This document shows, piece by piece, positions 6,339 through 23,591 of a stretch of DNA of 49,792 nt. Every line of letters begins with the position of its first letter. Positions within the stretch are counted from its first letter, which is position 1. This DNA comes from Clostridia bacterium (GTDB taxonomy: Bacteria; Bacillota; Clostridia; Christensenellales; UBA3700). Location: the NCBI GenBank assembly GCA_029060065.1, contig JAIDUT010000044.1, positions 1-49,792 on the forward strand, read 5' to 3'. The position numbers were made by a program, and so were the translations under genes. The notes under the pieces are model-generated. The model was not told the DNA's origin and did not search any database. It saw nothing but the letters and a program-made list of their open reading frames with translations.

Positions 6339-6353
6339 TATAATTTAATAATA
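6339..6353 (+). repeat. Left direct repeat (target duplication) TATAATTTAATAATA
   Basis: Identical to 23592-23606; identity extends to 17 bp (6338-6354 vs 23591-23607). Confidence 0.85.
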
Positions 6354-6463
6354 TGTAAAGTTTTACAATGGTATAGAACAGGAAAGAAAGTGTTTTATAC
6401 CATTTTTTCTACTGTTCAAATAAAAATAACGGTGGCGACATTACGCAAAGGAAGGTAACGAAA

Positions 6464-6751
6464 ATGGAAAAAATCACTATCAAAGGCAAAATCGAATTTT
6501 GCGAGGTTGAGAACAAAGGGTATAACCGAGAGTTTGAGGCTATACTCGAAGACAGTAACGCATTTGCTTATGGCAATCAAACGCAGGTACTTATTTTGTT
6601 TGGAAGAATGGCAAATGGCGAGGTGGGCGGTCTTGTGCTACTTGATACACGTTATGACCGAACAATTAAACGTAATGAAAATGATTTCAAAATGTGGATT
6701 CAAAAGTATTTTGAGGAACATTACGCTGAACACGTTTTGACACTCTATTGA
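6464..6751 (+). CDS. Hypothetical protein (95 aa)
   Basis: ATG with GGAAGG RBS; first ORF of the element. Confidence 0.7.
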   Translation: MEKITIKGKIEFCEVENKGYNREFEAILEDSNAFAYGNQTQVLILFGRMANGEVGGLVLLDTRYDRTIKRNENDFKMWIQKYFEEHYAEHVLTLY

Positions 6752-6807
6752 GTGAACGGCTGAACTATCGGCTTGACGGGTAAATTTAATTAGACAAGGT
6801 GGTTAAA

Positions 6808-6933
6808 ATGAGTAGAGTTGATAAAAGTCGTAATCGAAGAATACGTCGTGCTCAACGTAATGATTTGAAAATGAATATGCGTTATAGATATTGGCATCGT
6901 CGTATTGGTGGAAGATACGGCAAAAATAAGTGA
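6808..6933 (+). CDS. Arginine-rich 41-aa peptide
   Basis: AAGGTGG RBS; MSRVDKSRNRRIRRAQRNDLKMNMRYRYWHRRIGGRYGKNK; fills the gap between co-oriented genes; below ORF-track cutoff. Confidence 0.6.
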   Translation: MSRVDKSRNRRIRRAQRNDLKMNMRYRYWHRRIGGRYGKNK

Positions 6934-6959
6934 TTTTATGTATTGACGAGGTGCTTAAA

Positions 6960-7580
6960 ATGGAAAACGGAACGAAAAAGTACATTGAAACGGTCAAATA
7001 CCTTGAAAAGTTGTACGACTATTGCAACGAAAAATTGTTTAACGGCGAACTTTCAAAACCTGTAATTACGGTGCAATGTGACGAGCGCAATAAAACAAAT
7101 GGTTGGTGGTCGGTTAAAAAGGTTTGGAAAGAAAGCGACGAAGACAAGGGCGAACACGAACTGAATATTACGGCGCAATCACTCAACCGCCCAATTAAAC
7201 AAATTGCCGAAACTATGATACACGAAATGTGCCACCAATACGCAAGCGTACACAATATGCAAGATACTTCCCGAGCAGGCAATTATCATAATAAGTTATT
7301 TAAGAAAATTGCCGAAAGTCACGGTTTGACTGTTGAATGTATGCAAACAATAGGTTGGTCGCATACGGAATTGACAAGTAAGACTGCGGAACTTATAACG
7401 GAATTTGTCAAGGACTTCCCTTGCAACGTTATTTACCGCTTACCTGTAATGAAAGGTCAAAGCGTTAAGAGTTCTAGCACTCGCAAGTATATTTGTCCGT
7501 GTTGTGGGCTTTCAGTAAGGGCAACAAAGGCGGTAAATATAATGTGCGTGGACTGTAATGAGTATTTGCAAGAGGAATGA
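6960..7580 (+). CDS. SprT-like zinc metalloprotease with C-terminal Zn ribbon
   Basis: HEMCH (HExxH), YHNKLFKKIA, CPCC...CVDC; start set at ATG 6960 after GAGGTG. Confidence 0.8.
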   Translation: MENGTKKYIETVKYLEKLYDYCNEKLFNGELSKPVITVQCDERNKTNGWWSVKKVWKESDEDKGEHELNITAQSLNRPIKQIAETMIHEMCHQYASVHNMQDTSRAGNYHNKLFKKIAESHGLTVECMQTIGWSHTELTSKTAELITEFVKDFPCNVIYRLPVMKGQSVKSSSTRKYICPCCGLSVRATKAVNIMCVDCNEYLQEE

Positions 7581-7945
7581 GTATGGAAAAAAAGCCTCGT
7601 AGACTTTCTTGTCCATATATAGAAAATGGGTGCGTTGGTATATGTAAGTTTAGCGTTATTGACGTGGTTTGTCCGTATTATGTCCCCGAATGTCCTTATG
7701 AAAAGTTAGAAGTAAATGATATAGTGGCAACCTATTTATTAAAAGTTAAACAATATGACATAACTTTGAACGATTATAGGTTGAAAGTTTATAAAGTAAA
7801 AACTAATGATATTTATCACGTAATTGGAAAAATATATTGCAACGCATTTGAAAGAATTGAGAGTATGAGTTATGGTCTTTGGACGAAACAGCGTGAGGAA
7901 TTTTGGGAAAAAGAGGGTTACAGTGTTGTTGATTATAAGGAATAA
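7577..7945 (+). CDS. Hypothetical protein with Cys-rich N-terminus
   Basis: ATGA overlap with upstream gene; CPY x3 motif. Confidence 0.7.
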   Translation: MSMEKKPRRLSCPYIENGCVGICKFSVIDVVCPYYVPECPYEKLEVNDIVATYLLKVKQYDITLNDYRLKVYKVKTNDIYHVIGKIYCNAFERIESMSYGLWTKQREEFWEKEGYSVVDYKE

Positions 7946-7975
7946 TTACAAGAGGAATAAGTTAAGGTAAAATAT

Positions 7976-8087
7976 GGGAACGTGCGTAGTGGTAAGCGCG
8001 CACATATAAACGGGTATTCCCCCTCTTCCATAGAAATTACCCGTTAAAGTATGTGAGGGGCAAGTTCAATTCTTGTCGTTCCCACCA
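7976..8087 (+). ncRNA. tRNA-like RNA with expanded (45-nt) anticodon loop
   Basis: Acceptor GGGAACG/CGTTCCC + ACCA; D arm GCGT-AGTGGTAA-GCGC; stem CACAT/ATGTG; T arm GCAAG-TTCAATT-CTTGT. Confidence 0.8.
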
Positions 8088-8137
8088 CTAAAAAAAATAC
8101 GCGTGCCGTATGCGACAAGCGGTAAAGGAAAATTATT

Positions 8138-8575
8138 ATGGCAAACGAAAAGAAAGTAAAGGCAACTGAAAGCGTAGAAAGCACGACCACGGCGGAAGTA
8201 TCGGCAACGACCGAAAAAAGACTTGTGGTAGAGCGTGAAAAGTTCATTGCGAAAGACGGTCGAGAGATGTGGGGCTACGCTGTACACGGAAAAGTACGCG
8301 GACGTGATACAAAAGTAGACTTCAACGCTTATGACCAAGGCGGATATGAAGTGTTGGATATGGTATTCGACATTAAGCCTACCGCTGACCTTTTGATGCG
8401 TGAAGAAAGTATGACGGACGGCGATACGGGCGAAATTCGCAAATACACGATTTACGAAGTCAAGAATATTGACGAGGACGGCGACGAGATTTCTTGCCGT
8501 ATCAAGCCTGCAAGGGATAGCGACAAATCAATACTCGCCTATTTGTTGAAGAAGTTGAATAGACAAACGGCGTAA
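8138..8575 (+). CDS. Hypothetical protein, candidate ssDNA-binding protein
   Basis: Clear ORF with AAGGAA RBS and its own terminator; beta-rich pattern and position before the membrane-protein genes; function is inference only. Confidence 0.55.
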   Translation: MANEKKVKATESVESTTTAEVSATTEKRLVVEREKFIAKDGREMWGYAVHGKVRGRDTKVDFNAYDQGGYEVLDMVFDIKPTADLLMREESMTDGDTGEIRKYTIYEVKNIDEDGDEISCRIKPARDSDKSILAYLLKKLNRQTA

Positions 8576-8591
8576 GTATATATATTGTATA

Positions 8592-8636
8592 TATAAAAAG
8601 AGGGGGTGGTGTATAACTATCCCCTTTTATGCTTTT
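8592..8636 (+). terminator. Intrinsic terminator-like hairpin
   Basis: AAAAGAGGGGGTGGT-GTATA-ACTATCCCCTTTT followed by T-rich tail. Confidence 0.6.
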
Positions 8637-8681
8637 TAGACGGTTGAATAAAGGTAACGAAATGTAGAGAGGAAAAGGAAA

Positions 8682-8891
8682 ATGGTAATTAGGAACTTTA
8701 TTGAAGTAACGAACTTTGACGACGGTGCGAACGTGTTAATACCTATTGATAAGATATTGGGTATTGTGTGTGATAGTGGCGGTAACGTATTTATTGAAAT
8801 GGGAACGGATAACAGAACTGTGTCGTCGGGTATTCTTGTAATTGAGAGTTACGACGAAATCAAAAATAAATTAAAAGCAAGTGAGGCGTAA
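8682..8891 (+). CDS. Small hypothetical protein (FlbD-like pattern)
   Basis: LIPIDKILGI...V.ESYDEIKNKL resembles small FlbD-like beta proteins; purine-rich RBS. Confidence 0.55.
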   Translation: MVIRNFIEVTNFDDGANVLIPIDKILGIVCDSGGNVFIEMGTDNRTVSSGILVIESYDEIKNKLKASEA

Positions 8892-8896
8892 ATCTA

Positions 8897-10501
8897 ATGT
8901 ACGAATTAAAAAGACATAAAAAAAGTGATAAAATCAAGTGGATATTTACGAGCATAACGTTTTTGCTTATTTCTGTAATGCTTGTTGGTTTTGGGTTGCA
9001 ACTCTTTGGCACAGGCAAATTAAAACCGTCCGAGTGGTTTACAAAATCTAATACCGAGGAAGTAATGTCGGGCAATGTTGAAAACGAAATGACGGCAACA
9101 TCTTCCGTTACTCCTCTTTCTATGGCGGTTTCGACAACTGTTGAGCCACGAGCAAACAATTATTCTTTACCTTCTTGGTGGAACGAAGGTAATGGTCCGG
9201 TAACAGGTTATTATTGTATATCTAGCAATGTTGGGAATTTGAACGATTTTGTTGGTTGCGTTGACCTTAGAAGCACTGAAGTATTTGGCAAGTCGGAGTT
9301 TGACGGATATGATAACGCTTTTATTTTTACTGCTCCTTCGTTTGACGGATATTCTGTTAAGAAATTGAGTGTTGATATTTATGGTTGTAGTTACGACCCC
9401 GGAAATGGTCGTTGCCCAAGTATGCCGTGGAATGCTCATAGCGACTATTGTGAATTTACTCCTAATTCTTTTTATGATACTCTTAAGTATTCATTTGAGT
9501 GTTCTTCGATAGGCAATGATAGATATACTTGCGGTGAATTTTACAACCCTTGGCGTGACGCTATTGGTATGTACATAGATTCTCTTCATTTTCTTTTTAA
9601 TATTGAATATGAGTTCGCAAAAGAACCTATTCCCCTTCCTGATAGTCCTGTAAAAGAAGGTTACACTTTCGTGGGTTGGTATTATGACGAGGCATTTACT
9701 AAACCTTATGATAATAAGCCTATTTTTGAGGATACCAACCTTTATGCAAAATTTGAAATTAACCGTTATAATGTCACTTTTAATTCAAATGATGGAAGTG
9801 ACGTTGCAAGTCAAGTTGTAGATTGGAATACGGTAGCAAACCTCACTACGCCAACACGTGACGGTTATGCTTTTAAGGGGTGGTATTTGTCAGACGGAAC
9901 GCAATATACAAACCAACCTATTAAAAGCAATACTACGCTTACGGCGCATTGGGAAAGGAATAGGTTTACAGTTACATTTAATACTGACGGCGGTAGTGAA
10001 ATTGAAAGTCAAACAGTTAGTTTGAACGCAAGCGTACAATTATCTACTACCACTAAAAAAGGCTTTAATTTTGTTGGTTGGTTTTTACAGGACGGAACGG
10101 AATATACAAATCAACCTATAACGGACGATATTGAACTTACGGCACGTTGGGAAGTGATTATATGTACTGTAACTTTCTATGTTGACGGTAAAGTTTATGA
10201 GGTTAAAGAAGTGGAATATGGCACTGCCCTGTCAGAGGTAGTTGAAGTTGCGTCTACAATGAACTTGCAAGTAATGTCACTGAGTTTAAGCGACGATACG
10301 CTTATTGGCGAAGTCGTTGACGAAATGAATACCGTAATAGGCGATTTAGATGTAACTGTCGCGATAATGAATGGTAAGGACAAAATTGTAAATACCGTTA
10401 AAAACAATAAATGGGCTGTTGTTGGCGGTCTTGTTGGTATTGTGGTATTGATTGTAGTCGTAATGGGTATTAGCAGTAGTGTTAAACGCAGAAAGCGTTA
10501 A
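8897..10501 (+). CDS. Membrane-anchored surface protein with InlB-B / Listeria-Bacteroides repeats (candidate adhesin or spike)
   Basis: N-terminal TM, repeats PVKEGYTFVGWY / PTRDGYAFKGWY / TTKKGFNFVGWF, C-terminal TM followed by KRRKR. Confidence 0.8.
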   Translation: MYELKRHKKSDKIKWIFTSITFLLISVMLVGFGLQLFGTGKLKPSEWFTKSNTEEVMSGNVENEMTATSSVTPLSMAVSTTVEPRANNYSLPSWWNEGNGPVTGYYCISSNVGNLNDFVGCVDLRSTEVFGKSEFDGYDNAFIFTAPSFDGYSVKKLSVDIYGCSYDPGNGRCPSMPWNAHSDYCEFTPNSFYDTLKYSFECSSIGNDRYTCGEFYNPWRDAIGMYIDSLHFLFNIEYEFAKEPIPLPDSPVKEGYTFVGWYYDEAFTKPYDNKPIFEDTNLYAKFEINRYNVTFNSNDGSDVASQVVDWNTVANLTTPTRDGYAFKGWYLSDGTQYTNQPIKSNTTLTAHWERNRFTVTFNTDGGSEIESQTVSLNASVQLSTTTKKGFNFVGWFLQDGTEYTNQPITDDIELTARWEVIICTVTFYVDGKVYEVKEVEYGTALSEVVEVASTMNLQVMSLSLSDDTLIGEVVDEMNTVIGDLDVTVAIMNGKDKIVNTVKNNKWAVVGGLVGIVVLIVVVMGISSSVKRRKR

Positions 10502-10513
10502 GCGAGGTGCATA

Positions 10514-11041
10514 ATGAAAACGTTGAGTAAAGTTATAACGTGGGTATTAGTTGCCATTGTTCTTTTAGGCGTCGTGGGTATGCTCTACTCTTTTATTGGA
10601 AACGGTCAGCGCAATTTTTACATTCGATACGGAAGCGAAGTAATGCCTACTTCCACAGACAATTTAGCCTTTGAAAAAGATGCTTGCAATGTTATTTATT
10701 GCGGTACTCTTACAGGGCAAAAAGTTGAGTATACGGTAACAATAGCATTGGACACGTCGAATATGTCTAATACTTCATTTAAGTTGAATGATAGTTCCGC
10801 TGACTTCAAATATGATTTGTACGGCTATGATTGTACCGCTTTATTTAACGTTGAAGTATTTGACGATTACTTTGTATTCTTCATTCCCAAAGATTTGACT
10901 TTGACTAAAATTTTGCAAAATAAGTATTCACAAGATACCATTACTGACGTAGTGGACGTTGATTTGTGGGAAAAGGACTATTTCGTATTGACTGTTACGG
11001 ATAAGGTCGAACGTAGTAGCACAGTAATTAGATTTCATTGA
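10514..11041 (+). CDS. Membrane protein with N-terminal TM (175 aa)
   Basis: GAGGTG RBS; hydrophobic residues 7-29. Confidence 0.75.
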   Translation: MKTLSKVITWVLVAIVLLGVVGMLYSFIGNGQRNFYIRYGSEVMPTSTDNLAFEKDACNVIYCGTLTGQKVEYTVTIALDTSNMSNTSFKLNDSSADFKYDLYGYDCTALFNVEVFDDYFVFFIPKDLTLTKILQNKYSQDTITDVVDVDLWEKDYFVLTVTDKVERSSTVIRFH

Positions 11042-11049
11042 GGTAACGT

Positions 11050-13038
11050 ATGCAAAAAGCAAGAAAACAATTATATATAAAACTGATTGTACTACTCCTT
11101 TTGGCGTTAGTAATTTTATCGTTGATTTGCAGTAATATATCAACTGCGTTTGCCTCGACGGACAACGTAATGCAATTTGATAGTACAAACGTATTGGACG
11201 ATTTGAAAGGTGGTACAATAGGCGGTAAATCATTTGATTTGGCTGACTATCCTTATGACGAAAAAGTTAAGCCACAAATAATTGGTTTAGTGGAATATTG
11301 TTATAGTTATTATGAAAGTCGTCAATCAAACTATGGTTTGTACGTTTACATATATAATCCACAAGGTCGTGATTTTGATACAAATACCGACCGCAATAAA
11401 ATTTCACTTTCTTATGGTGATAATGCAAGTTATAACAAATATGCTTTGAAATATCTTAACTGCTCTATTGCAAAAGGTACGGAAGGGCTTTTTTATAAAT
11501 TCAAAGTAAATCTATCGGAATTTGAACGCGCTTTGATTTTGAACGGTGTAAAACAAGCAGAACGTGTATATAAGATTGCAGGGCTTGAATTGTCTTTGAA
11601 AAATGAAGTAACTGACTATGCAGTAGCACAAACATATAAATATAGTGGATATTCAAAGGGTTATGCTCCGTTTGAGGGCGCGGAAAGCACGTTGTCGTGT
11701 GTTGTTGACGGTATAGATAAATATTTGCAATTAAACGTACATTCTACATATTGGCGTCCGTCGGGTACAAATGGCGATTCGTATTCACGTGATACTTTAC
11801 ATTCTGTTTATTTTTCAGTTCCAAACTATTTGATTGAGGAATACGGCGAAATGACGGCTGTACACGCTACTTGGTTAAATGCTCTTACCTCTCCTGTGTT
11901 TGTTACAGGTAATGAAACTGTATATAATGAGATAAACAAGTATTTGGGAAAATATGTTGACGGCGGTAAATTTCAACTTTCAAGTAGTGATAACTCTAAT
12001 ACTGATTTGAAATACGCTCTTATTGCCTCAAAGTTGATTGAGAGTGCAACTTGGAACAATGCTTCGTATGGCAGTTCTTATATAAGTTACAATGCAAATC
12101 GAAAGTATACAAGTTCGGACATTGACATTTATACACTTGCGTATTGCTTTCTTGCTGATAGCGTTTCGGGCGAACGTAATGCGGATAATTATGTTTTGCC
12201 CGCCGAAATGCTTGTTGGCGATAAGGAAAAAAATATAAGAGGTTGGTTTGAAACCTATACTGAAAAATACGGTGGCGAACTTGTGAATAATCGTTTTAGT
12301 AAAGATTTATTTGCGGAAGTTGCCGACAGTTTTACTGATATAACGATACGCAAAGACGATACATTTACATTGACTGACGAGGTGATCTCACAGAGTTTAT
12401 GGCAAAAGTTCATCGGTGGTGGCTATAACGTAACTGGTCAAAATCAGTATAACGTATCTGCTATTAAACGTGTAGATAATACCGATTTTAAGGCAACAAA
12501 AACGCAGACTTGCGACGGGCTATACATAAATGAAAGTGACTATGACGAATTTAAGAAGTTTTACGATAATGTTACTAGCAAAGATAAGCCCGAAACGGTT
12601 TACTTATTTAGATATTATCAATCGTCATATACGCATAATGAGGTTGCAACATATACAAGAGGAAAGGACGACGCTTTAATAAAAAGTTTTGCTTATAACT
12701 TTGTTGATACAAATGCGTACTTTATGCAAATGTGGGTACAACTTGACTTTGATATTATTGACGTGACTTTTACAAAGGATAACGTTGATACTGTTATTCC
12801 AGTAGTAATGTCGCCTGTCGATTTAGCGACTGACGGCGATACTACACTGTTTCCAAACAATGACAAAGACAATTGGTTGAAAATAGTTATTGCGGTTGTT
12901 TCGTTTATTCTATTGTGTGTAATTTTTGCGCCTATATTGCCGTATTTAATTCAATTTATTATAGGGCTTATAGCACTACCCTTTAAGTTGCTTGGTGCAG
13001 TATTTAAGGGCATAAGTAAAGCCGTAAGGCGAAAATAA
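11050..13038 (+). CDS. Large exported protein with signal peptide and C-terminal membrane anchor (662 aa)
   Basis: Signal peptide ending AFA-S; long C-terminal hydrophobic segment and basic tail VRRK. Confidence 0.8.
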   Translation: MQKARKQLYIKLIVLLLLALVILSLICSNISTAFASTDNVMQFDSTNVLDDLKGGTIGGKSFDLADYPYDEKVKPQIIGLVEYCYSYYESRQSNYGLYVYIYNPQGRDFDTNTDRNKISLSYGDNASYNKYALKYLNCSIAKGTEGLFYKFKVNLSEFERALILNGVKQAERVYKIAGLELSLKNEVTDYAVAQTYKYSGYSKGYAPFEGAESTLSCVVDGIDKYLQLNVHSTYWRPSGTNGDSYSRDTLHSVYFSVPNYLIEEYGEMTAVHATWLNALTSPVFVTGNETVYNEINKYLGKYVDGGKFQLSSSDNSNTDLKYALIASKLIESATWNNASYGSSYISYNANRKYTSSDIDIYTLAYCFLADSVSGERNADNYVLPAEMLVGDKEKNIRGWFETYTEKYGGELVNNRFSKDLFAEVADSFTDITIRKDDTFTLTDEVISQSLWQKFIGGGYNVTGQNQYNVSAIKRVDNTDFKATKTQTCDGLYINESDYDEFKKFYDNVTSKDKPETVYLFRYYQSSYTHNEVATYTRGKDDALIKSFAYNFVDTNAYFMQMWVQLDFDIIDVTFTKDNVDTVIPVVMSPVDLATDGDTTLFPNNDKDNWLKIVIAVVSFILLCVIFAPILPYLIQFIIGLIALPFKLLGAVFKGISKAVRRK

Positions 13039-13057
13039 AATAGTGAGGTAAATATAA

Positions 13058-13507
13058 ATGATTTGGAATAAACAAACGGGTAAAAAATATTATTCTGTTC
13101 AAGAAAAGATAAAGCATTATAGTAGTATGCTTGAAAGAAAAGATATTTCTTTAGATAAGAAGAAACTTGCTAAACAAAGGCTTATTGAATTGAAAGCAAT
13201 AGATAATTGTTTGTATGACGAGCCTACAATGATTATTACTGACGATAAATATTTTGGTAATCCTAGTTCTAAACTTCGTGCTTGCGTCGTTGTGGGCGTA
13301 GACAACAAACAACAGTTATTGGCTTGTCCTGTACGTAAAAGAACAATTAAAACTGTAATTCTTGAAAATGATACTGATAGACAAATGGACAGTACAGTTA
13401 AAATTCTTAAACGAAAAGACGTTTATGAAACAAAGAATATAAGTGGTTTGGCTTCTTTGACAAGTGGCGATAAGAAAAAGATAAAAGCAATTCACGGTAA
13501 AAAATAA
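13058..13507 (+). CDS. Basic protein, possible PemK/MazF-fold nuclease
   Basis: KLRACVVVG resembles the K.RP.VVV signature, followed by LLACPV; weak similarity by eye. Confidence 0.45.
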   Translation: MIWNKQTGKKYYSVQEKIKHYSSMLERKDISLDKKKLAKQRLIELKAIDNCLYDEPTMIITDDKYFGNPSSKLRACVVVGVDNKQQLLACPVRKRTIKTVILENDTDRQMDSTVKILKRKDVYETKNISGLASLTSGDKKKIKAIHGKK

Positions 13508-13665
13508 CAGCGACTTGTTGGGTCGCTGTCGGTGGACTTATTACCACTCACCGCTGTTGAGAAGCGGTGCCTACTGACTAATAGGTATTACCTTTCGTGG
13601 TCGGTAAGGCAATTATATATGATTATTGTTGTAAAAGTCAAACAAATTTACAAAAAAAAATAAAT

Positions 13666-13683
13666 TTGAAAGTGTACTTTCAA
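13666..13683. promoter_or_regulatory. Palindrome TTGAAAGT-NN-ACTTTCAA, copy 1 of 4
   Basis: Also at 18160-18177, 19472-19489 and 23379-23396. Confidence 0.7.
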
Positions 13684-13695
13684 AAAGGAAAGAGA

Positions 13696-13923
13696 ATGAC
13701 AATGAGAGATACGGCAAATTTGATTAAAACGCAAGAGCAATATGAGAGTTTGAAAACTCTATGCGCCAACGAATTGGGAACGACTACGGATAACGTGGAT
13801 ATAGGACTTATTGCGGATATAGGCGACGGCAAATATAAAATAAAGGTAGTGTACAAACATAGTTATTTATACGCAATGATATATGACGGAAAAAGAATAA
13901 CGGAATACGTGAGGTTGATATAG
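13696..13923 (+). CDS. Hypothetical protein (75 aa)
   Basis: Start reset to ATG 13696 after AAAGGAAAG. Confidence 0.65.
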   Translation: MTMRDTANLIKTQEQYESLKTLCANELGTTTDNVDIGLIADIGDGKYKIKVVYKHSYLYAMIYDGKRITEYVRLI

Positions 13924-13925
13924 TA

Positions 13926-14141
13926 ATGAAAGTAATTGATTACGTAGGCTGGATAGTTGGTTTTTTGATTGGCGTTGGTGTGCCTAGTTTGATTTTGTTT
14001 ATTGTCAATTATGCAAAAAAGCATAAAGGACAGCAACCGTCAAAGGGTGTTAAAACGCTAATAAGATTATTAAACGTAATAATTTTTGTAGTGGTGTTGG
14101 CGGAAATAGGTTACTTTATCTATACGGGGGTACGACTATGA
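13926..14141 (+). CDS. Small two-TM membrane protein (71 aa)
   Basis: Two hydrophobic helices separated by a basic loop; ATGA overlap with the ATPase gene. Confidence 0.7.
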   Translation: MKVIDYVGWIVGFLIGVGVPSLILFIVNYAKKHKGQQPSKGVKTLIRLLNVIIFVVVLAEIGYFIYTGVRL

Positions 14142-16315
14142 ACGCTAACGGAAACGGAAAAAGACGCTTTAATTATCGTCATATAATTTGTGTAATGATA
14201 ACGCTTGGTTGCTTGGCTTGCTCGTTGTTCCGCTATTCAAGTGCGCTTGGTAGAATCATTGAGGGCGGACGTGATTTTGGGCTTTCTATTGCCTACTATT
14301 TTTGTGAAATGTTTGGTATTGAGCATAATATCACGCCAACAGTCAATGACTTGCCAAAGATACCGTTTTTCGACTTTGCGCAATCTCCTGCGCCGTCAAC
14401 TCCTCTGCCCGATACTACTGACGGCTTTAAGGCGAATTGGACGGTATATTGGCAGTTGTGGGCTACGAAAGCAAACTTTATGGGATATTTGTCGTTCCTT
14501 GGCGACGTACTTTTTTATACTTTTTGTTGTACAATTACAATCATATTGCCACTTGTAGGCGGTTTGTATTTGTACTTAAAAAGATACTTCAAAAAGGTAA
14601 ATAATGATTACAACAAGGATAGCCGTCCGCTAAAAGTGTGCAAATGGCTTACGGCTCATACATACTCCCCCGTCAAAAGATTTGTTGTGGGGCTTTGGGC
14701 TTTTATAAAAGAGCATAAGCAGTACGTCATAGTGTGGGGCTTTATATGGGCGTTTAACTTCAATATAATTGCAATCGTGCTTGAATTTTTGGCATATTAC
14801 TTTTATTTTGTAGTGTCCTTTGACGTAGCGAGTATTTATCGGCAAGTATACAAACTATTTCTTGACCTGTCAGTACCGTTAAAGGCTATACCCGTATGGG
14901 CTTGGGTAATGATAGGGCTTGGGTGGTTTGACAACTTCCGCAAAAAAATAGCGTACGCAACTCTAAATCATTACGAAATGCGAAATCGTGGCTTTGTCAA
15001 CGCCCGTCCTATCGTATTTATGACGTGCGGTACAATGGGAAAGAAAAAGACAACGACGATAACGGATATGGGGCTTTCGCAAGAGGTAATGTTTCGTGAT
15101 AAAGCATTGGAAAAGTTGCTTGAAAACGACTTAAAATTTCCATACTTCCCTTGGATAAATTTGGAAAATGAGTTAAAACGTGCAATGCAATACCACGAAG
15201 TATATAATCTTGCTACGGTGCGAAAATTCGTCTATAAAAAGGCGAAAAGGTGGCAAAAGACTAAAACGCAAAGTAAACTCTTTGACTATGAATATGAACG
15301 CTATGGGTTTACTTACGACGATAAATTGAAAATTGTCAACGTGTGGGAAGTAATTGAGAATTACGCTCAACTATACTTTATCTATATAATACAGTCGTCT
15401 TTGATTATTTCTAATTATTCTATACGTGTGGACGCTGTTTTGAGTGATTTAGGCAACTTCCCTATGTGGAATAGCGACTTTTTTAAGCGTGATAGTAGGC
15501 TTATAGATAGTTTCTCGCGCCACTCTCATATCTTGGACTTTGACAGTCTACGGCTTGGGCGTAAAGTTGTTAAAAATAACATTAACGCAAACAACTTCGA
15601 GTTTGGCGTCGTAGTAATTACGGAAGTTGGCAAAGAGCGTGGCAATAATCTTGAATTACAAGAAAAGAAAAAGAAAGATATTGACACAAATCAAAAAAAT
15701 GACTTGTTCAATAGTTGGCTTAAAATGGTACGCCACTCCGCCACCGTAGACAACTTCCCTTTTGTAAGGGTAATCGTTGACGAGCAACGTCCTGAAAGTT
15801 GGGGTGCAGACGCTCGCGATTTATGCGAAATCGTACATATACGCGAAGGCGGAGATACACGACTTGCAATGCCTTTCTTCTCACTTGCTGAATTGCTTTA
15901 CGACTGGATACTTGGCAAGTTTTCAGGGCTATATTATCAATATAGATATGTGCGTAGTGATAAGACCGTGCCTATGTATGCTCTCAAAGCGTTTACGGCG
16001 AAAATAGACCACTACTACACGCGAATTTATAATCGTTTTGGATACTGCCGTTTGCAGGTGCAAACCGAAAGCGGAACGCAAGACGGACAACGTGACGAAA
16101 ACAAATACTATTTAATGCCTAAAAAGATTTATAGTAAGCGTTTTTCCACTGACTGTTATTCGGACTATTTTACAGAAAAAGCGTTACGCTCTCCCGTCGG
16201 TATCGACGATTTGAGGGAATACGAAACCGAAAAAGCAACGTTTAGCGAACTTCGCTTACAAAATAGTTACTTTGTCAATGACCTATTAAATGGCTTGACT
16301 GAAAATAAAAAATAA
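14138..16315 (+). CDS. Multi-TM Zot/pI-like (FtsK-HerA clade) ATPase
   Basis: N-terminal TM segments; variant Walker A GTMGKKKTT; Walker B-like VVVITE; LKMVRH...RVIVDEQRPESWGADARDL matches the RH / Q / R pattern of pI-like ATPases. Confidence 0.7.
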   Translation: MNANGNGKRRFNYRHIICVMITLGCLACSLFRYSSALGRIIEGGRDFGLSIAYYFCEMFGIEHNITPTVNDLPKIPFFDFAQSPAPSTPLPDTTDGFKANWTVYWQLWATKANFMGYLSFLGDVLFYTFCCTITIILPLVGGLYLYLKRYFKKVNNDYNKDSRPLKVCKWLTAHTYSPVKRFVVGLWAFIKEHKQYVIVWGFIWAFNFNIIAIVLEFLAYYFYFVVSFDVASIYRQVYKLFLDLSVPLKAIPVWAWVMIGLGWFDNFRKKIAYATLNHYEMRNRGFVNARPIVFMTCGTMGKKKTTTITDMGLSQEVMFRDKALEKLLENDLKFPYFPWINLENELKRAMQYHEVYNLATVRKFVYKKAKRWQKTKTQSKLFDYEYERYGFTYDDKLKIVNVWEVIENYAQLYFIYIIQSSLIISNYSIRVDAVLSDLGNFPMWNSDFFKRDSRLIDSFSRHSHILDFDSLRLGRKVVKNNINANNFEFGVVVITEVGKERGNNLELQEKKKKDIDTNQKNDLFNSWLKMVRHSATVDNFPFVRVIVDEQRPESWGADARDLCEIVHIREGGDTRLAMPFFSLAELLYDWILGKFSGLYYQYRYVRSDKTVPMYALKAFTAKIDHYYTRIYNRFGYCRLQVQTESGTQDGQRDENKYYLMPKKIYSKRFSTDCYSDYFTEKALRSPVGIDDLREYETEKATFSELRLQNSYFVNDLLNGLTENKK

Positions 16316-16337
16316 AATATGTGAGGTAAAAAAAAAT

Positions 16338-16613
16338 ATGTTTAATTTAGCGGACAAAATTAAGTACTACAAAAGAAGATTTGTACTTGACGACGATAAT
16401 AAGCGTGGTTACGCTAGGGGTTTTGTCAATGGTGCTAGTGTAAATCATACGAAAGCGCATAATATTGACGATAAGAAAGAATTATCGTTGTCATATCGTG
16501 AATTAAAAAAAGCGAAAAATGCTGACGATAGGCGTATTATACTTGCTGATATTTGCTATTTGAAAGGCTGTTTGCAGGGTTATAATGAAAAAATGAAAAA
16601 CGATAAAAAATAG
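16338..16613 (+). CDS. Small basic hypothetical protein (91 aa)
   Basis: GAGG RBS; GYARGF and YLKG motifs. Confidence 0.65.
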   Translation: MFNLADKIKYYKRRFVLDDDNKRGYARGFVNGASVNHTKAHNIDDKKELSLSYRELKKAKNADDRRIILADICYLKGCLQGYNEKMKNDKK

Positions 16614-16869
16614 AAGGTGTTATCCTTTTAGATTGCGGAGGCAAAAGAGAAAATGCAATACATAATAAAGCAAGTGAACGGTTTTCCGTAGCACAATGCA
16701 AAGACGAAAATGCAACTAAAAAGGTGCTATCCTTTTGAGTTGCTTTCGGCAGGGCAAAAGTAATACGGAAAATGCGAACTGTCAAGCACATCGTGAAATA
16801 AAAGCGTAGCGATTATGTCGCGAAAGGTGCTTTACAGTACGCAAGTAAACGACGATAGAGGTAATAACT

Positions 16870-17841
16870 ATGGAATACGCAAACTTGATACCTATTGAGA
16901 ATATGACGGACTACCCGTTTCCATTCTTTGACGAGCCTATCCCACCTACGGAAACTTATTACAAGGTTTATAACGACGGTGGGCATTACATAGCAACACG
17001 TATTTATCGCAGTCAAGCGAAAGCAAAATCGCATAATAATACGCAACGTGAGGACATAGACATACTCTTTGATAGCCTTTACAATGCCACTTTACAAGAC
17101 GGATTAAAAGCCGACGAACAAGTGGCATACATAAAGGCAGGTATACTCAAACTATTCCCCCATTGCTATGATTTAGACGGCTACGTTGCGGACAAACTTG
17201 AACGCAAACGGCATAATCTTTATGCCCGTAAAAAGCGTTTTCGTCGCAAGGCTAATCTCAATAAGTGGAATTACTTCGTTACGTTTACGTATGACGACGG
17301 CAAACAAGACGAGAATACGTTTAGGAAGAAGTTGCGGTGTTGCTTATCTCATTTGCATACGCGTCGTGGGTGGCGTTATATGGGCGTATTTGAAAGAGCG
17401 CCGGAAACGGGACGTTTGCACTTTCACGGACTGTTATACGTACCCGACGGCGAAATGATAGGCAACATATCAGAACGAACTGATTATAGTACCGCGCAAA
17501 GCAAAATGCAAACTACACACCCAAACGATTTTTTTGAAAAGGCTTTCGGGCGCAACGATTTTGAGGAATTAAACGAAATGGAACTACGACACGGCCAAAC
17601 GCTAAATTACATTTTGAAGTACATAGGAAAGACAGGCGAACGCATTGTTTATAGTAGAGGAATACCGACAGAAGTATGCGTAAAGGTCAAGGCTGACGAT
17701 ATAATAACGGATATGCAAGATTACGGAACAAAATACATACTTTTTGACGACGTGATAACTTGGGAACGCGACGTAATGAATTTCAAGCGAAAGCAAGTAT
17801 CAATATTTGACCTCTTATGTAATCCCCAACGGGTAGCGTAA
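16870..17841 (+). CDS. HUH-superfamily rolling-circle replication initiator
   Basis: Motif I FVTFTY, motif II LHFHGL, motif III YILKY (two tyrosines). Confidence 0.88.
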   Translation: MEYANLIPIENMTDYPFPFFDEPIPPTETYYKVYNDGGHYIATRIYRSQAKAKSHNNTQREDIDILFDSLYNATLQDGLKADEQVAYIKAGILKLFPHCYDLDGYVADKLERKRHNLYARKKRFRRKANLNKWNYFVTFTYDDGKQDENTFRKKLRCCLSHLHTRRGWRYMGVFERAPETGRLHFHGLLYVPDGEMIGNISERTDYSTAQSKMQTTHPNDFFEKAFGRNDFEELNEMELRHGQTLNYILKYIGKTGERIVYSRGIPTEVCVKVKADDIITDMQDYGTKYILFDDVITWERDVMNFKRKQVSIFDLLCNPQRVA

Positions 17842-18025: not shown

Positions 18026-18053
18026 TGAAAGCGGTCAGTCGGTCGGTAAAAAC

Positions 18054-18110
18054 GCGACACCTTGTACCGTCCGCCGTCAGGCGGACGCTCGTAGTAGTAC
18101 AAGGTATCGC
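18054..18110 (+). repeat. 57-bp branched hairpin, candidate double-strand origin, copy 1
   Basis: 54/57 identical to 21301-21357; directly downstream of rep; contains TAGTAGTAC. Confidence 0.7.
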
Positions 18111-18179
18111 CTAATAGCCCCTATGGTAAATTTACCATAGAATTAAGCAAAGAATTGTCTTGAAAGTGCACTTTCAAAA

Positions 18180-18476
18180 CTAGGCTTTGCAAGGCTCTAA
18201 AAGTCTATCTATCGTAACGCTATGATACTTGGCAAGGGCTATCAAATATCGTAGGGACGGAACAACCTCGCCACGCTCCCACTGACTGACATTTTTTTGA
18301 TTAACTCCCAAAGCGTCGGCTACGTCCTTTTGACTTTGCTTGCGGTCTTGTCGTAAGCAAATAAGATTGAAAGCAAGGTCAATTCTAGGCTTTGTGTTTT
18401 CGTCGGCTTGCTCTCTTTGTTCCATTAGACTAAAAAGCGATATTTTTGCCGTTGTTGTGTAAGTAGGAAATAACAT
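18180..18476 (-). CDS. XRE-family HTH regulator 1
   Basis: LRQDRKQSQKDVADALGVNQKNVSQWERGEVVPS; start uncertain, ATG 18476 coincides with the predicted +1. Confidence 0.85.
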   Translation of the reverse strand: MLFPTYTTTAKISLFSLMEQREQADENTKPRIDLAFNLICLRQDRKQSQKDVADALGVNQKNVSQWERGEVVPSLRYLIALAKYHSVTIDRLLEPCKA

Positions 18477-18482
18477 ACTTTT

Positions 18483-18511
18483 ATTATATGGTAAACTTAC
18501 CATATTGTCAA
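18483..18511 (-). promoter_or_regulatory. Consensus sigma-A promoter with palindromic operator in the spacer
   Basis: TTGACA (18511-18506), 17 bp, TATAAT (18488-18483); operator TATGGTAAACTTACCATA at 18487-18504. Confidence 0.8.
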
Positions 18512-18524
18512 GGAAAAAATTACT

Positions 18525-19427
18525 ATGAAAAACAACGAAATAAAAGACAAATTGAATATACTTGAAAACAAACTTAATTTGCTAATAAATCAAACGCCCA
18601 TAGAACGCCCTGCCCCTTATACGCTCTATGAGTGGTTGGAATTATGGTATGTAACTTGTAACGCTCCAACGCTTTCAAAAAAGTGGCATAAAGTTTTGAG
18701 ATATAATATTGACCGCATAAAATCATTACTTCCTGATAAACTCTTGAACGAATACACCGCAATAGAACTTTTGCAAGCCGTCTATGCCGTGCCTTTGAGT
18801 TATACTCGTTCAGCCTGCTATAACTTATTGAACGCCGTATATAAGCAAGCCGTACGGCTCGGCTACGTGCTTATCAATCCATTGGATGCAACAGAAAAAG
18901 TAACGCACGTTAGACAAGTAGGGCGAGCGTTAACTCTTGAAGAGCAACGGCAATTCTTAAAAGTATTGGACGGAAACGCCCGAAAGGCTCTATATTTATT
19001 CTATCTTTTAAGTGGTTGCCGTTGCTCGGAGTTAATAGCACTCCGTTGGACTGACATTGACGAAAACGCAGGTCTTATACACGTATACGGAACGAAAACG
19101 CCCCACGCTAATAGATATATACCACTATTCCCTCAAATTCGGGCATTGTTAGACACAATTCCCCATATCAATGAAAGAGTATTCCCCCTTACTGAAAACG
19201 CCGTTAAAAGCCATTTTCAACGCTTAAAACATAAATACGGCTTGAATTTCCGTTTGCACGATTTACGGCATACCTTTGCTACACGTTGCATAGAAAGTGG
19301 CATAAGCATTTTTACGCTGTCAAAATGGTTAGGACATAGCAACATAAACACAACCGCAAGTATTTACGCCCATTTGCTGACTGACTTTGAACGGCAAGAG
19401 ATTGCACGATTTGACCCAAAGATATGA
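18525..19427 (+). CDS. Tyrosine recombinase / integrase
   Basis: SGCRCSE (R), GTKT (K), HDLRHTFA (H-x-x-R), WLGH, IYAH (Y). Confidence 0.93.
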   Translation: MKNNEIKDKLNILENKLNLLINQTPIERPAPYTLYEWLELWYVTCNAPTLSKKWHKVLRYNIDRIKSLLPDKLLNEYTAIELLQAVYAVPLSYTRSACYNLLNAVYKQAVRLGYVLINPLDATEKVTHVRQVGRALTLEEQRQFLKVLDGNARKALYLFYLLSGCRCSELIALRWTDIDENAGLIHVYGTKTPHANRYIPLFPQIRALLDTIPHINERVFPLTENAVKSHFQRLKHKYGLNFRLHDLRHTFATRCIESGISIFTLSKWLGHSNINTTASIYAHLLTDFERQEIARFDPKI

Positions 19428-19493
19428 ATACCACGAAAGGACGATAGCAACCGCTACCGCCCTTTTGATTTTTGAAAGTGTACTTTCAAAAAA

Positions 19494-19721
19494 TTACTCT
19501 GTTTCGCTATACTCCCCCACGCAAAGGACTTCGTTTGCGTCAAGGTCTAGCACGGCACAAAGTTTTGCAAAAGTATCTAATGCGGGCATTGCTCTCCCCG
19601 AAAGATATTGGGCAATTGTCGAAGATTTAATATTAACTCTTCGGCAAATTTCCGCTTGTGTCATTCCACTATTTTTGATAGCATCTTTTAATTTCTCTCT
19701 AATTGCATTTAACGTAATCAT
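19494..19721 (-). CDS. XRE-family HTH regulator 2
   Basis: SGMTQAEICRRVNIKSSTIAQYLSGRAMP; ATG 19721 after GGGAGG. Confidence 0.88.
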   Translation of the reverse strand: MITLNAIREKLKDAIKNSGMTQAEICRRVNIKSSTIAQYLSGRAMPALDTFAKLCAVLDLDANEVLCVGEYSETE

Positions 19722-19749
19722 AAAAAATATACCTCCCAAACAAATTATA

Positions 19750-19823
19750 CTAGGAATTGCCTAGCAAATGCTTGACAACTAGGCAATGCCTAGTATATTA
19801 TTAAGTTGCTAGGCAATGCCTAG
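19750..19823. promoter_or_regulatory. Three palindromic operators (CTAGGCA-N-TGCCTAG) over divergent promoters
   Basis: Copies at 19750-19764 (one mismatch), 19779-19793 and 19809-19823; TTGACA at 19772. Confidence 0.8.
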
Positions 19824-19849
19824 TAATAAAAATAAAGGACGGACGAACT

Positions 19850-20164
19850 ATGAAACAAAAACAAAGCAACACGCCCCGACAAGAGGGGCAACACACCGAC
19901 AGCCAAAAAAGTCAATTCTTGATTGACAATTTGGATAAGTTTTGCAAGGACAACAATTTGGTTGTTATTTCCGTAGAAAACGACTATGGCAAGATTATTG
20001 CGCAAAGAGATACAAAGGACAAAGACAAAATCACAAAGATTGTAGGCTTTGCCGTATCTGTTGACGAGTGCGAAGAGATTGACGAGAACGAGGACTACGA
20101 GGACGAAGAGAACGAGCAAGACGAAAAGATTACGATAGATAGGTTTGTGAGGTGGTTAAAATGA
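19850..20164 (+). CDS. Hypothetical protein with acidic C-terminal tract
   Basis: AAGGA RBS; first gene after the operator array. Confidence 0.65.
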   Translation: MKQKQSNTPRQEGQHTDSQKSQFLIDNLDKFCKDNNLVVISVENDYGKIIAQRDTKDKDKITKIVGFAVSVDECEEIDENEDYEDEENEQDEKITIDRFVRWLK

Positions 20165-20997
20165 CAAATTGGGGTGATTGGAAAATAACTGACGAACAAG
20201 CACAAGCAATTCACAACGGAGAAAAAACCGCTCGCGATAAATTCTACTTTGATAATTTAGATAAAATTCGGGCTATGGCTCATACTCATTGCTCTCGTTC
20301 TTCTTCTTGTCGTGGTTGGTTTGAAGATATGGTTAACGGTGTTTACGTTGATTTAACGATTTTTGAAAGTGGCATAAATCAGCCTGTGAATGGTGTATGG
20401 CGGTTGCATAAATTCATTTACGCAAGTTTTAAGGCTTGCCCACACGGTGGGTTGGCTTATCTTTACGAAAATAATCGCAAATTATTAAGTGGTAGGAAAG
20501 AATATCGCGCGCCTACCGATATTCTTTCGTTTGATTCTCCTATAAGTTATTCAAGTACTTTACATAACCACGACGGCGGACATAGTACGACGATTGCGGA
20601 TATTATACCTGCTCCCCATTCGCTGAGTGAAAAAAGATATGACATTATAAAGCAAATTGTTTGCCGTCGTCTTTCGCCTCGTGCCTCTGCTTATGTTGGA
20701 CTTTTAATTGATGGTTATGCTACTAAGGAAATAAAAGCGTTGACAGTTGACAAACGAACAACTTTAAGTGCTGTAAAAAAAGAACTTATAACTCATTGTA
20801 AAACTATATTGGACGATTTAACCGCTATTGGCTTAAATGTAGAATATTACTATAAAATAGATCCAAGTGAAAAAGTAGAAAAACATTATAAACAAACACC
20901 CGAAGAGCGCGAAAAGCGTCGATTATGGGCGCGAAATTGGCGACTAATACAAAAAACAAAGAAAAACGCAACGCCCACGCTCCCACCTGTGGCGTGA
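20161..20997 (+). CDS. Divergent sigma-70-like protein
   Basis: Region-2-like (AIHNGEKTARDKFYFDNLDKIRAMA...FEDMVNGVY), region-3-like SFDSPI...TIADII, region-4-like LSPRASAYVGLLIDGYATKEI. Confidence 0.55.
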   Translation: MTNWGDWKITDEQAQAIHNGEKTARDKFYFDNLDKIRAMAHTHCSRSSSCRGWFEDMVNGVYVDLTIFESGINQPVNGVWRLHKFIYASFKACPHGGLAYLYENNRKLLSGRKEYRAPTDILSFDSPISYSSTLHNHDGGHSTTIADIIPAPHSLSEKRYDIIKQIVCRRLSPRASAYVGLLIDGYATKEIKALTVDKRTTLSAVKKELITHCKTILDDLTAIGLNVEYYYKIDPSEKVEKHYKQTPEEREKRRLWARNWRLIQKTKKNATPTLPPVA

Positions 20998-21186
20998 GGC
21001 ACGGACATTGACAACGGCAAACTATCTTCTTTAAGGCTAGGGCGTGAAAACGCCCCAACCTAATCCGCACAAGACCAGAGCAAAAGCCACAGCATTTTGC
21101 GACGTGCGGAACGCGAAAAGGCAAAGGCTATTACGTCTTTGCCTTTGAGATTACCTATTGAAAAGAAAGCAAGGCACTTGGAGAAC

Positions 21187-21262
21187 GCACAAAAAAACAA
21201 GGTGGCGCAACGGAGTCAAAAAGCGGTTTAGCGTTGACCCGTTGCCCCTTGTTTTGGCGTGT
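21187..21262 (+). other. Candidate single-strand origin hairpin, copy 2
   Basis: Stem with loop AAAGCGGTTTAGCG followed by T, giving TAGCGT. Confidence 0.5.
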
Positions 21263-21300
21263 CGCTTCGGTTAGTCGGTCGGTTACTCAGTCGGCGAGTG

Positions 21301-21357
21301 GCGATACCTTGTACCGTCCGCCGTCAGGCGGACGCTTGTAGTAGTACAAGGTGTCGC
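21301..21357 (+). repeat. 57-bp branched hairpin, candidate double-strand origin, copy 2
   Basis: Direct repeat of 18054-18110. Confidence 0.7.
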
Positions 21358-21417
21358 GTAATAGCCCCACTAATCAAATTTGATAGAAAAACCGCTTGAA
21401 ATTAAGTAATATTTTGA

Positions 21418-22322: not shown

Positions 22323-23372
22323 ATGAAAAAGAAAGGAACGAAAGATTTAACGTTAACGCAAAGGCGCGAATTGGAAACGCTATTGAAAGCAGGTCTGCAT
22401 AAAAAGCAAATCGCCAAACAATTAGGCGTATGCCTTGCAACCGTGTACAACGAAATCAATCGCGGAAAATGTACTCAAAAGGTCATTAGGTACGTCGATT
22501 GGTTTGGCGATAAGCATTATAAGGAAGTAACGGCATATAGTGCGGATTTAGCCGAATATAATTATCGACTAAATCAATCGTCACACGGTGCGCCACTTAA
22601 AATTGGCAACGATTTTGAATTAGTACGCGAAATTGAAAATCGTGTTGTCAATGATAAGATAAGCCCGTGCGCCGCGCTAGGCGAAATCAAGCGCAAAGGA
22701 ATATGCCGTACAACGATAAGCAAAACTACGCTCTATCGTTATATACGTATGGGCGATATATTCACGCGCATAACAATGCAAGATGTGAAATTAAAGCAAA
22801 AACATTATCAAAAAGCGACGGTAAAACGTCCGCCGAGAGGTACAAGCATTGAAAAACGCCCTGCCGAGATTGCCGAGCGTAACACATTCGGGCATTGGGA
22901 AATGGATTGTGTTATAGGCAAGCAAAGTACAAAGCAAACTATACTTGCTTTTACCGAGCGGTTGACACGTTATGAAATCGTATTCAAAATGCCCGACCAT
23001 AAAGCGACGACAGTAGTCCGCTACGTTAACAAACTTGAAAAGCGTTACGGCAAGCAATTCCGTAAACTATTCAAAAGTATTACGGTTGACAACGGCGTGG
23101 AATTTAGCGACTATAAGGGGCTTGAAAAGTCTATTTATGGCGGTAAACGTACTAGCGTATACTATTGCCACCCATATACCTCTTGCGAACGTGGAAGTAA
23201 TGAGCGATTAAACCGTGAGATACGCCGACTAATACCAAAAGGCATTGATTTATCTACTATAAGCGAAAAGCGCATACAAGCGGTTGAAACGTGGATAAAT
23301 GATTATCCGCGTGAAATCTTTGGGTACGCTACAAGTGCCGAAATGTTTAACGCGCAATTACAAGCAATTTAA
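22323..23372 (+). CDS. IS30-family DDE transposase
   Basis: N-terminal HTH; GHWEMDCV, SITVDNGVEF, YCHPYTSCERGSNERLNREIRR, INDYPR. Confidence 0.95.
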   Translation: MKKKGTKDLTLTQRRELETLLKAGLHKKQIAKQLGVCLATVYNEINRGKCTQKVIRYVDWFGDKHYKEVTAYSADLAEYNYRLNQSSHGAPLKIGNDFELVREIENRVVNDKISPCAALGEIKRKGICRTTISKTTLYRYIRMGDIFTRITMQDVKLKQKHYQKATVKRPPRGTSIEKRPAEIAERNTFGHWEMDCVIGKQSTKQTILAFTERLTRYEIVFKMPDHKATTVVRYVNKLEKRYGKQFRKLFKSITVDNGVEFSDYKGLEKSIYGGKRTSVYYCHPYTSCERGSNERLNREIRRLIPKGIDLSTISEKRIQAVETWINDYPREIFGYATSAEMFNAQLQAI

Positions 23373-23591
23373 CAATTATTGAAAGTACACTTTCAAAAAA
23401 CTAATCAAGCCGTCGTAGTACGGCTATTTGTCGTGCAACAAACTTCCCCGTTTGCGCCGTTTTTCTACCACTTGCAAGTGGTAGAAAAAGTTAAAGCCCA
23501 CCGAATTACTACTTTCGACAGGCTTTTTTATCGTGTAACAAACTTTTTTTGAATTTAAGAAAAAAATTCTAAAAAAATGCTTGACTTTTCA

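Follow-up and report, generated by a model that had tools for sequence, protein, structure and literature searches.

Can the formation of a circle assemble a promoter from the two ends of a mobile element? This question is raised by a 49,792-nucleotide stretch of DNA from a gut Clostridia genome (contig JAIDUT010000044.1 of assembly GCA_029060065.1, the whole of which is called the window here), in which a mobile element of 17,238 bp occupies positions 6354–23591. The element has a −10 hexamer just inside its left end and a −35 hexamer just inside its right end, 17 kb apart in the chromosome. A sequence-only reading of the window had proposed that the two ends, when joined as in circles of the insertion sequence IS30, create a promoter aimed at a plus-strand gene block, and that circularization itself switches on the replication and structural genes. 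Our own reading, to which we give a probability of roughly 60%, is that positions 6354–23591 form one transposable unit, a phage-like or plasmid-like replicon with an IS30-family transposase as its integrase, in which a 2-bp circle junction builds a promoter into the plus-strand genes. The features on which the argument turns are the following.

6339..6353, no strand: left copy of the 15-bp target-site duplication, TATAATTTAATAATA (length from nine other insertions)
6354..6378, plus strand: left inverted repeat (IRL), 5'-TGTAAAGTTTTACAATGGTATAGAA, which imperfectly matches the reverse-complemented right end (alignment)
6364..6369, plus strand: −10 hexamer TACAAT, 10 nt inside the left terminus (left-end alignment)
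6369..6408, plus strand: conserved hairpin with arms 6369–6381 and 6390–6402 and the T-run TTTTTT at 6403–6408 (RNAalifold, fold energy)
6464..17841, plus strand: gene block (open reading frames [ORFs], family searches)
22323..23372, plus strand: IS30-family DDE transposase with an N-terminal helix-turn-helix (HTH) (NF033563, phrog_4646)
23567..23591, plus strand: right inverted repeat (IRR), ending CTTGACTTTTCA-3' (alignment)
23581..23586, plus strand: −35 hexamer TTGACT, 5 nt inside the right terminus (sequence, 80-locus survey)
23592..23606, no strand: right copy of the 15-bp target-site duplication (repeat search)

The transposase matches NCBIfam NF033563 with 219.9 bits (cut-off 80; E = 4.8e-65) and phrog_4646 with E = 5e-110, has HTH_7 and HTH_38 domains at its N terminus followed by an rve core, and is present as a single copy in the 1.57-Mb genome. 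Relatives were collected by searching genome contigs with this transposase; the best 80 of 303 loci, mostly from Christensenella, Christensenellaceae, or Clostridia gut metagenome-assembled genomes, were examined, and the window's 21 proteins were compared with these 80 loci by tblastn. A rolling-circle replication protein (Rep) was matched in 52 of the 80 loci and a 725-residue NTPase in 39. In 49 of the 52 loci with Rep, its gene lies at most 1.5 kb upstream of the transposase gene on the same strand, and the transposase therefore belongs to the element. The usual gene order is SprT-like protein, small ORFs, surface proteins, NTPase, Rep, transposase, and right end, from which the window differs by an extra insert between Rep and transposase. 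The idea that the transposase is a separate insertion sequence that landed in a prophage was ruled out by its single copy, by the adjacency of Rep, and by the duplications flanking the whole unit.

The termini of the element read 5'-TGTAAAGT on the left and ACTTTTCA-3' on the right, and at the boundaries ATATAATTTAATAATAT is followed by GTAAAGTTTTACAATGG on the left, whereas AATGCTTGACTTTTC is followed by ATATAATTTAATAATAT on the right. The exact 17-mer ATATAATTTAATAATAT is present twice, at 6338–6354 and 23591–23607; with up to two mismatches allowed there are three matches against 0.13 expected, and none of 100 shuffles gave three. Both ends and the flanking repeat were recovered in nine relatives: L035, L049, L054, L071, and L080, as well as L034, L040, L042, and L043, in which the left ends were found by BLAST. 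All ten insertions (the window and nine relatives) carry a duplication of 15 bp, with one mismatch in the L034 copy, and not the 2–3 bp usual in the IS30 family. In each of the ten, the duplications adjoin termini of the form 5'-YGTAAAGT...ACTTTWYR-3'. The limits 6354–23591, which the sequence-only reading had assumed, are hence borne out by relatives whose same termini adjoin duplications of their own, and the 17-bp repeat of the window is the 15-bp duplication, lengthened on either side by a single base that matches by chance. The duplicated sequences of the ten insertions are unrelated to one another, and some are GC-rich (e.g., GCGCTCAGCGCGCGG, GAAGGATAGGAGCGT, and the window's own TATAATTTAATAATA); since they differ in all ten insertions, the flanking repeat is a transposition footprint and not an att core. 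In G005, a genome of the same genus with a 95%-identical transposase, the right end is shared up to TTGACTTTTCA, after which the flank diverges.

Direct repeats in L051 (12 bp), L083 (13 bp), and L103 (11 bp) are not counted here, as no family left end follows them. No empty site was found in relatives, and the neighboring host genes were not syntenic in 41 genomes, including G000. A preference for hairpin targets was not seen either, the mean fold energy being −6.66 for 70 flanks vs −7.65 for 1320 control windows (one-sided p = 0.98).

IRL and IRR form an imperfect inverted repeat of about 25 bp, in which the window's ends match at 17 of 25 aligned positions. When left ends and reverse-complemented right ends of four elements were aligned, A4, A5, G7, T8, T16, T19, T21, A22, A24, and A25 were invariant at both ends, and in L088 positions 20–23 were altered on both ends together. 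The left and right repeats differ consistently at columns 9–12 and 15, which are the sites of TTGAC and of the −10; that is, the repeats match except where the hexamers lie.

The hexamers themselves are in the sequence as originally described, with TGTAAAGTTT-TACAAT at 6354–6369 and TTGACT-TTTCA at 23581–23591. The arithmetic behind the proposal is also correct: a 2-bp junction gives a spacing of 5 + 2 + 10 = 17, compared with 15 for ends abutted directly and 30 if the duplication were kept. Conservation of the hexamers at homologous ends, which the sequence-only reading had put forward as a check, was found on both sides. In every one of the ten insertions with duplication-fixed ends, 5 nt separate the −35 from the right terminus. 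All 19 left ends seen have a TAnAnT hexamer 10 nt from the terminus; for six of them the position came from BLAST, and the sequence was then read with a regular expression (regex) requiring TA...T. An alignment of 12 left ends shows no change at T11, A12, A14, and T16 but variation at positions 13 and 15, which confines the variation of the −10 to hexamer positions 3 and 5; the variants among the 19 left ends are TACAAT (10), TATAAT (5), TATACT (3), and TAAAAT (1). TTGAC[TA] is found 120–340 nt past the transposase in 75 of the 80 loci, a motif-defined count that indicates prevalence and not independent conservation. The 30 nt upstream are at least 70% A/T in 69 of these 75 loci, and three of the other five, i.e., those without TTGAC[TA] at 120–340 nt, are cut short.

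Right ends joined to left ends were found in five contigs of relatives (L088, L119, L120, L121, and L122). The spacer is 2 bp in all five, and each joint reads TTGACT, 17 bp, TA(C/T)A(A/C)T. The search pattern consisted of the right-end motif, a gap, and the left-end motif, with gaps of 0–20 in metagenome contigs and, as a regex, 0–25 on the 80 genome loci. Among the genome loci it gave one junction, TTGACT-TTTTA-GT-TGTAAAGTTT-TATACT in L088, a contig of 14,632 nt whose 141-nt exact terminal overlap marks a circular assembly (spacer GT). Metagenome contigs gave 14 matches, four of which had the family's subterminal sequence and element proteins, all with a 2-bp gap; the other ten (gaps 5–19), which had neither family subterminal sequence nor element proteins, were set aside, and viral contigs gave no match to the pattern. 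L120 is a second circular assembly (11,821 nt, 43-nt terminal overlap, spacer AA; both lengths are stated before removal of the overlaps), and L121 is a linear contig that runs through transposase, right end, GT, left end, and SprT gene. The remaining two are of poorer quality: L122 (spacer TA) is short, with low coverage, a sequencing adapter at one end, and a truncated transposase, and the first 80 nt of L119 (spacer TT) resemble an assembly fold-back. A junction that retains a 15–17-bp repeat or has another spacing, named in the sequence-only reading as evidence against it, was looked for; no family junction kept a repeat, though the pattern would match one, and all had 2 bp. We hold the ends of the element and the 2-bp junction of the family to be very probable, and the same junction is likely for the window's own copy.

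The precedent invoked for such a junction is found in the literature on IS30, where the inverted repeats are joined with 2-bp spacing and form a strong junction promoter, Pjunc (PMC9333248). The word “excision,” used in the sequence-only reading, is wrong, because circles of the IS30 type are copied out and the donor copy stays in place. When contigs were scanned for promoter consensus, the junction site came first on the plus strand in L121 (TTGACT-17-TACAAT) and L088 (TTGACT-17-TATACT), with 10/12, and no plus-strand promoter was detected at the integrated left end of the window.

A second conserved feature lies next to the −10. RNAalifold gives a 13-pair stem that starts at the last base of the −10 and is followed by the T-run, with compensatory double changes at 9 of the 13 pairs in 12 sequences. 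In the window the hairpin folds with −12.6 kcal/mol (z = −4.45), and the scan scored it as a terminator in L121 and L088. Judged from its sequence, the hairpin with its T-run looks like an intrinsic terminator. The predicted start about 7 nt after the −10 (near 6376) falls in the 5' arm and would omit 7 of the 13 pairs, and read-through from the host flank would hold the whole hairpin. The hairpin may thus serve as an insulator that transcripts from the junction skip.

These elements can be combined into a mechanism. As in IS30, the transposase would copy out a circle whose right and left inverted repeats meet across a 2-bp spacer, and the junction would set TTGACT 17 bp upstream of TACAAT. 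The resulting sigma-70-type promoter would drive transcription of the plus-strand block, with a start at about 6376. As long as the element is integrated, the hairpin that begins with the last base of the −10, together with its T-run, would stop transcription entering from the host, and transcripts of the junction promoter, starting inside the 5' arm, would escape it. Real activity of the junction promoter is rather probable; that it acts as the main on/off switch is a tentative suggestion for which we see slightly less than even odds. Less likely, and clearly so, is the broadest form of the idea, in which a widespread, repressor-free family in gut Clostridia would have DNA topology as its only lysogeny switch, the IS30 junction promoter being co-opted for the whole replication and morphogenesis program and the end-terminator keeping the integrated copy silent.

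The gene content bears on what kind of element this is and on the alternatives weighed below. The remaining features are listed here.

6930–7580, plus strand: SprT-like protein, in the gene block
8897–10501 and 11050–13038, plus strand: surface and membrane proteins, in the gene block
14138–16315, plus strand: membrane-anchored P-loop NTPase, 725 residues (RecA-like fold only)
16870–17841, plus strand: rolling-circle Rep (PF23343)
18054..21368, no strand: nested 3.25-kb element between 68-nt repeats at 18054–18121 and 21301–21368 (repeats 94% identical)
18525–19427: tyrosine recombinase (Phage_integrase), on the nested element
23376..23530, plus strand: hairpins with T/A runs, probable terminators, between transposase and right end

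Rep belongs to PF23343, REP_ORF2-G2P, the family of plectrovirus ORF2 and inovirus G2P (E = 2.6e-10; 40.9 bits, cut-off 27.8). The 725-residue protein has about 290 residues of membrane helices followed by a P-loop domain and no sequence match in Pfam, PHROG, or PDB. Its AlphaFold2 model (mean pLDDT 66.7) shows only a generic RecA-like fold, and in a fold search with the P-loop domain RecA, phi8 P4, the coupling protein TcpA, and the Zot N-domain were tied (Z 6.9–8.0); an Atlas lead from this protein to Zot scores 0.88, alongside these tied matches. Small membrane ORFs are present (e.g., 13926–14141), without family match, and no coat or Zot-type protein was confirmed in the element. In the conserved block no HTH regulator was detected besides the HTH of the transposase itself, and no repressor-like gene was found. 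With its 17,238 bp the element is not a simple insertion sequence of the IS30 type, which would have 1–1.7 kb and one transposase gene. One locus from an NTPase-alignment scan of viral contigs, L134 (IMG/VR, 20,099 nt), encodes the NTPase (68% identity) and Rep (42%) along with three further proteins of the block and gave no IS30 transposase match; the family may use more than one integration module.

Besides a tyrosine recombinase, the extra insert between Rep and transposase encodes two XRE regulators and two unknown ORFs, and each of its 68-nt repeats holds a palindrome. Its depth in X1, the likely source run of the window, is 17.8 vs 23 for its flanks. In X2 it appears as a 3274-nt contig that returns on itself (back 3247), which is a circle or a tandem, and in the X4 and X3 contigs it is absent, with a joint 18091→21342. 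A tyrosine recombinase was found inside the element in one of the 80 loci (L051), and L103 has a weak match 7 kb outside.

The contig of G005 with the closest transposase (C18, L025; 95% identity) has a right end as well and ends in the 68-nt repeat, and a DNA search of the rest of G005 did not recover the 15.5-kb body of the element in the window. A related genome (G041, contigs C3, C24, and C12; L127, L129, and L033) has at least three left ends, two of them exactly at contig starts, and one of its right ends runs into a scaffold gap, behind which the right end is repeated. This pattern points to multiple copies, or to circular forms alongside integrated ones, as the cause of the breaks in the assembly.

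Several observations weigh against a junction promoter that controls the block. Seven plus-strand sites within the gene block also score 10/12 in the consensus scan, so that the block might be expressed in the integrated state as well. Since both hexamers fall within the ~25-bp inverted repeats, their conservation could reflect transposase binding alone. The hairpin could also attenuate the junction transcripts. Circular contigs are, moreover, indistinguishable from head-to-tail dimers. The junction predicted by the sequence-only reading, TTTTCA-NN-TGTAAAG, stood in five of five family junctions of relatives but not for the window's own copy, for which contigs of four runs showed no 23591→6354 joint. 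The contigs of X1 pass both element ends unbranched; this shows a stable integrated majority and not an absence of circles, because contigs drop rare variants. At window position 6352, an X2 contig reads TTTGACTTTTCA, then 8 nt, then TGTAAAG (30 letters are visible), at a depth of 19.8, similar to the rest of the element in X2. Such an 8-nt spacing yields no promoter. The contig may represent an element inserted beside the end of another, and IS30 is described as targeting its own inverted repeats (PMC9333248).

The internal promoter-like sites and the placement of both hexamers within the repeats also favor an account in which the junction is real, TTGAC and TAnAnT are transposase contact sites only, and the genes run from internal promoters; so does the conservation of about 35 nt of the right subterminal region, and not of TTGAC alone. 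However, the two ends differ precisely at the hexamers, which is unexpected for a symmetric binding site, the −10 varies in a pattern typical of sigma-70 promoters, the 5 + 2 + 10 spacing is kept across transposases only 57–62% identical, and IS30 has a working Pjunc (PMC9333248). We consider this account improbable, although it is the strongest of the competitors. A little further down the scale is the view that the circle is a normal stable replicon, a plasmid or the replicative form of a phage, with an ordinary constitutive promoter that integration splits by accident, leaving integrated copies as silent dead ends. The two full-length circular assemblies, the element's own rolling-circle Rep, and the lack of a repressor-like gene in the conserved block fit this view; most of the copies found, however, are integrated with ends and genes intact, and the conserved left-end terminator makes sense only for the integrated state. 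This view differs from the reading of an IS30-mobilized replicon with a junction promoter in emphasis more than in mechanism.

Finally, the exact 17-bp direct repeat that flanks the element and the Phage_integrase gene inside it could be taken to mean that the tyrosine recombinase excises the element between these repeats, giving a circle that keeps one repeat and holds the hexamers 30 bp apart. The evidence already contradicts this: ten insertions have ten different flanking repeats, the recombinase sits on the nested 3.25-kb element, which is missing from X3 and X4 contigs and assembles as a circle of its own in X2, it occurs inside the element in 1 of 80 loci, and no family junction has a 15–17-bp spacer. 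We regard excision of this kind as highly implausible, and the different repeats and the single recombinase-bearing locus likewise ruled out a prophage with tyrosine-integrase att sites.

Some further observations concern the insertion site and promoter-like sequences in and around the element. The insertion lies between diverging host genes, a DUF1385-methyltransferase gene (minus strand) and a 96-amino acid (96-aa) gene (plus strand), the flanks being 6280–6353 and 23592–23713. The DUF1385-methyltransferase promoter, TAGACA-17-TATAAT, is at 6317–6289 on the minus strand, and the 96-aa gene has its own promoter, TTGACT-17-TATAAT, at 23653–23681. In the integrated state the terminal −35 and host DNA together give TTGACT-18-TATTAT (10/12) at 23581–23610, facing outward toward the 96-aa gene at 23714. 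The target itself is TATAAT-rich, and the G005 and X3 flanks also start with, or hold, TATAATTT. In three of the ten insertions (L049, L054, and L080; ~0.6 expected), the right duplication copy is followed by CG, the same two bases with which the left end of the element starts, so that the repeat seems to measure 17 bp; this could reflect a target preference or a repair footprint. Within the element, a promoter-like TTGACT-18-TATAAT (11/12) on the minus strand at 13612–13641, in the intergenic gap between the ORFs 13058–13507 and 13597–13923, faces against the plus-strand block. The palindrome TTGAAAGTRYACTTTCAA has four copies (13665–13685, 18160–18178, 19471–19491, and 23376–23397), and most related loci retain the sequence of the copy directly after the transposase stop codon. 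The palindrome might act as a terminator, as an operator, or as the nick site of Rep.

The comparisons define the true ends of the family, its fixed 15-bp duplication, its 2-bp circle junction, and the promoter that would be built there, and they offer a concrete mechanism for a class of 11–17-kb gut elements. The YGTAAAGT...ACTTTWYR ends with the 15-bp duplication provide a signature by which annotators can recognize such elements. If the promoter and the end-terminator work as proposed, expression would be coupled to the copied-out state without a repressor, which would bridge the biology of insertion sequences, as represented by Pjunc, and the control of temperate phages.

The window's element and IS30 of Escherichia coli both have a DDE transposase of the IS30 family and imperfect inverted repeats of about 25–26 bp at their termini, and Dalrymple reportedly noted in 1987 a −35 in the IRR and a −10 in the IRL of IS30. 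IS30 is copied out as a circle or dimer in which the repeats are 2 bp apart, with a promoter at the junction (PMC9333248). IS30 has 1.2 kb, one gene, and 2-bp duplications, and its Pjunc drives the transposase directly. In contrast, the window's family has 11–17 kb, 15–20 genes, and 15-bp duplications, and in the window's element the promoter faces replication and envelope genes, with the transposase as the last gene. Precedent within the IS30 family for duplications longer than 2–3 bp comes from IS1630 of Mycoplasma fermentans, whose IS30-type transposase makes target duplications of 16, 23, 25, and 26 bp (PMC3317919). IS1630 is an ordinary insertion sequence, however, and its duplications vary in length, unlike the fixed 15 bp here.

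Larger elements offer other parallels. ICE6013 of Staphylococcus aureus has 3-bp duplications and coupling sequences, and we know of no junction promoter in it. Like the window's element, it is a multi-gene mobile element with an IS30-like transposase as its recombinase (PMC7913919); unlike it, ICE6013 is conjugative. In Tn916, a terminator near one end keeps out transcription from the host, and the element's genes depend for their expression on the excised circle (PMC11658703), which provides a tested analogue of an insulating terminator at an element end. Tn916 relies on a tyrosine recombinase, on an RNA antiterminator, and on an intact promoter reading through the joint, whereas in the window's element the joining of the ends would itself create the promoter, and the location of the start site would let transcripts avoid the terminator. 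Among the Plectroviridae, some employ transposases of the IS3 or IS30 family, according to a 2026 taxonomy commentary (PMC13595969). Those with an IS30-family transposase are small filamentous-type phages, and the window's Rep is of the plectrovirus ORF2/inovirus G2P family; they are said to lack a dedicated Rep, however, while the window's element has both Rep and transposase and a host among gut Clostridia.

An unnamed element of about 15 kb in Pumilibacteraceae, which is enriched in virus-like particles, carries an IS30 transposase at its edge and is flanked by direct repeats of 15 bp; it also encodes an “inovirus gp2 family” protein and a TraG/TraD-like protein, and its host is of the same order (bioRxiv 10.64898/2026.07.08.737213). 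In the part of the preprint available, no ends, junction, or promoter are described, and its authors left mobilization unexplained and ascribed the repeats to site-specific recombination. Likened by description only, this element probably belongs to the same family as the window's. The family is possibly particle-forming, this probably related element being the only one seen in particles. In the literature searched, no junction promoter for an IS30-borne phage-like element turned up. The junction promoter of IS30 is known; what is new here is its use before a whole phage-like gene block.
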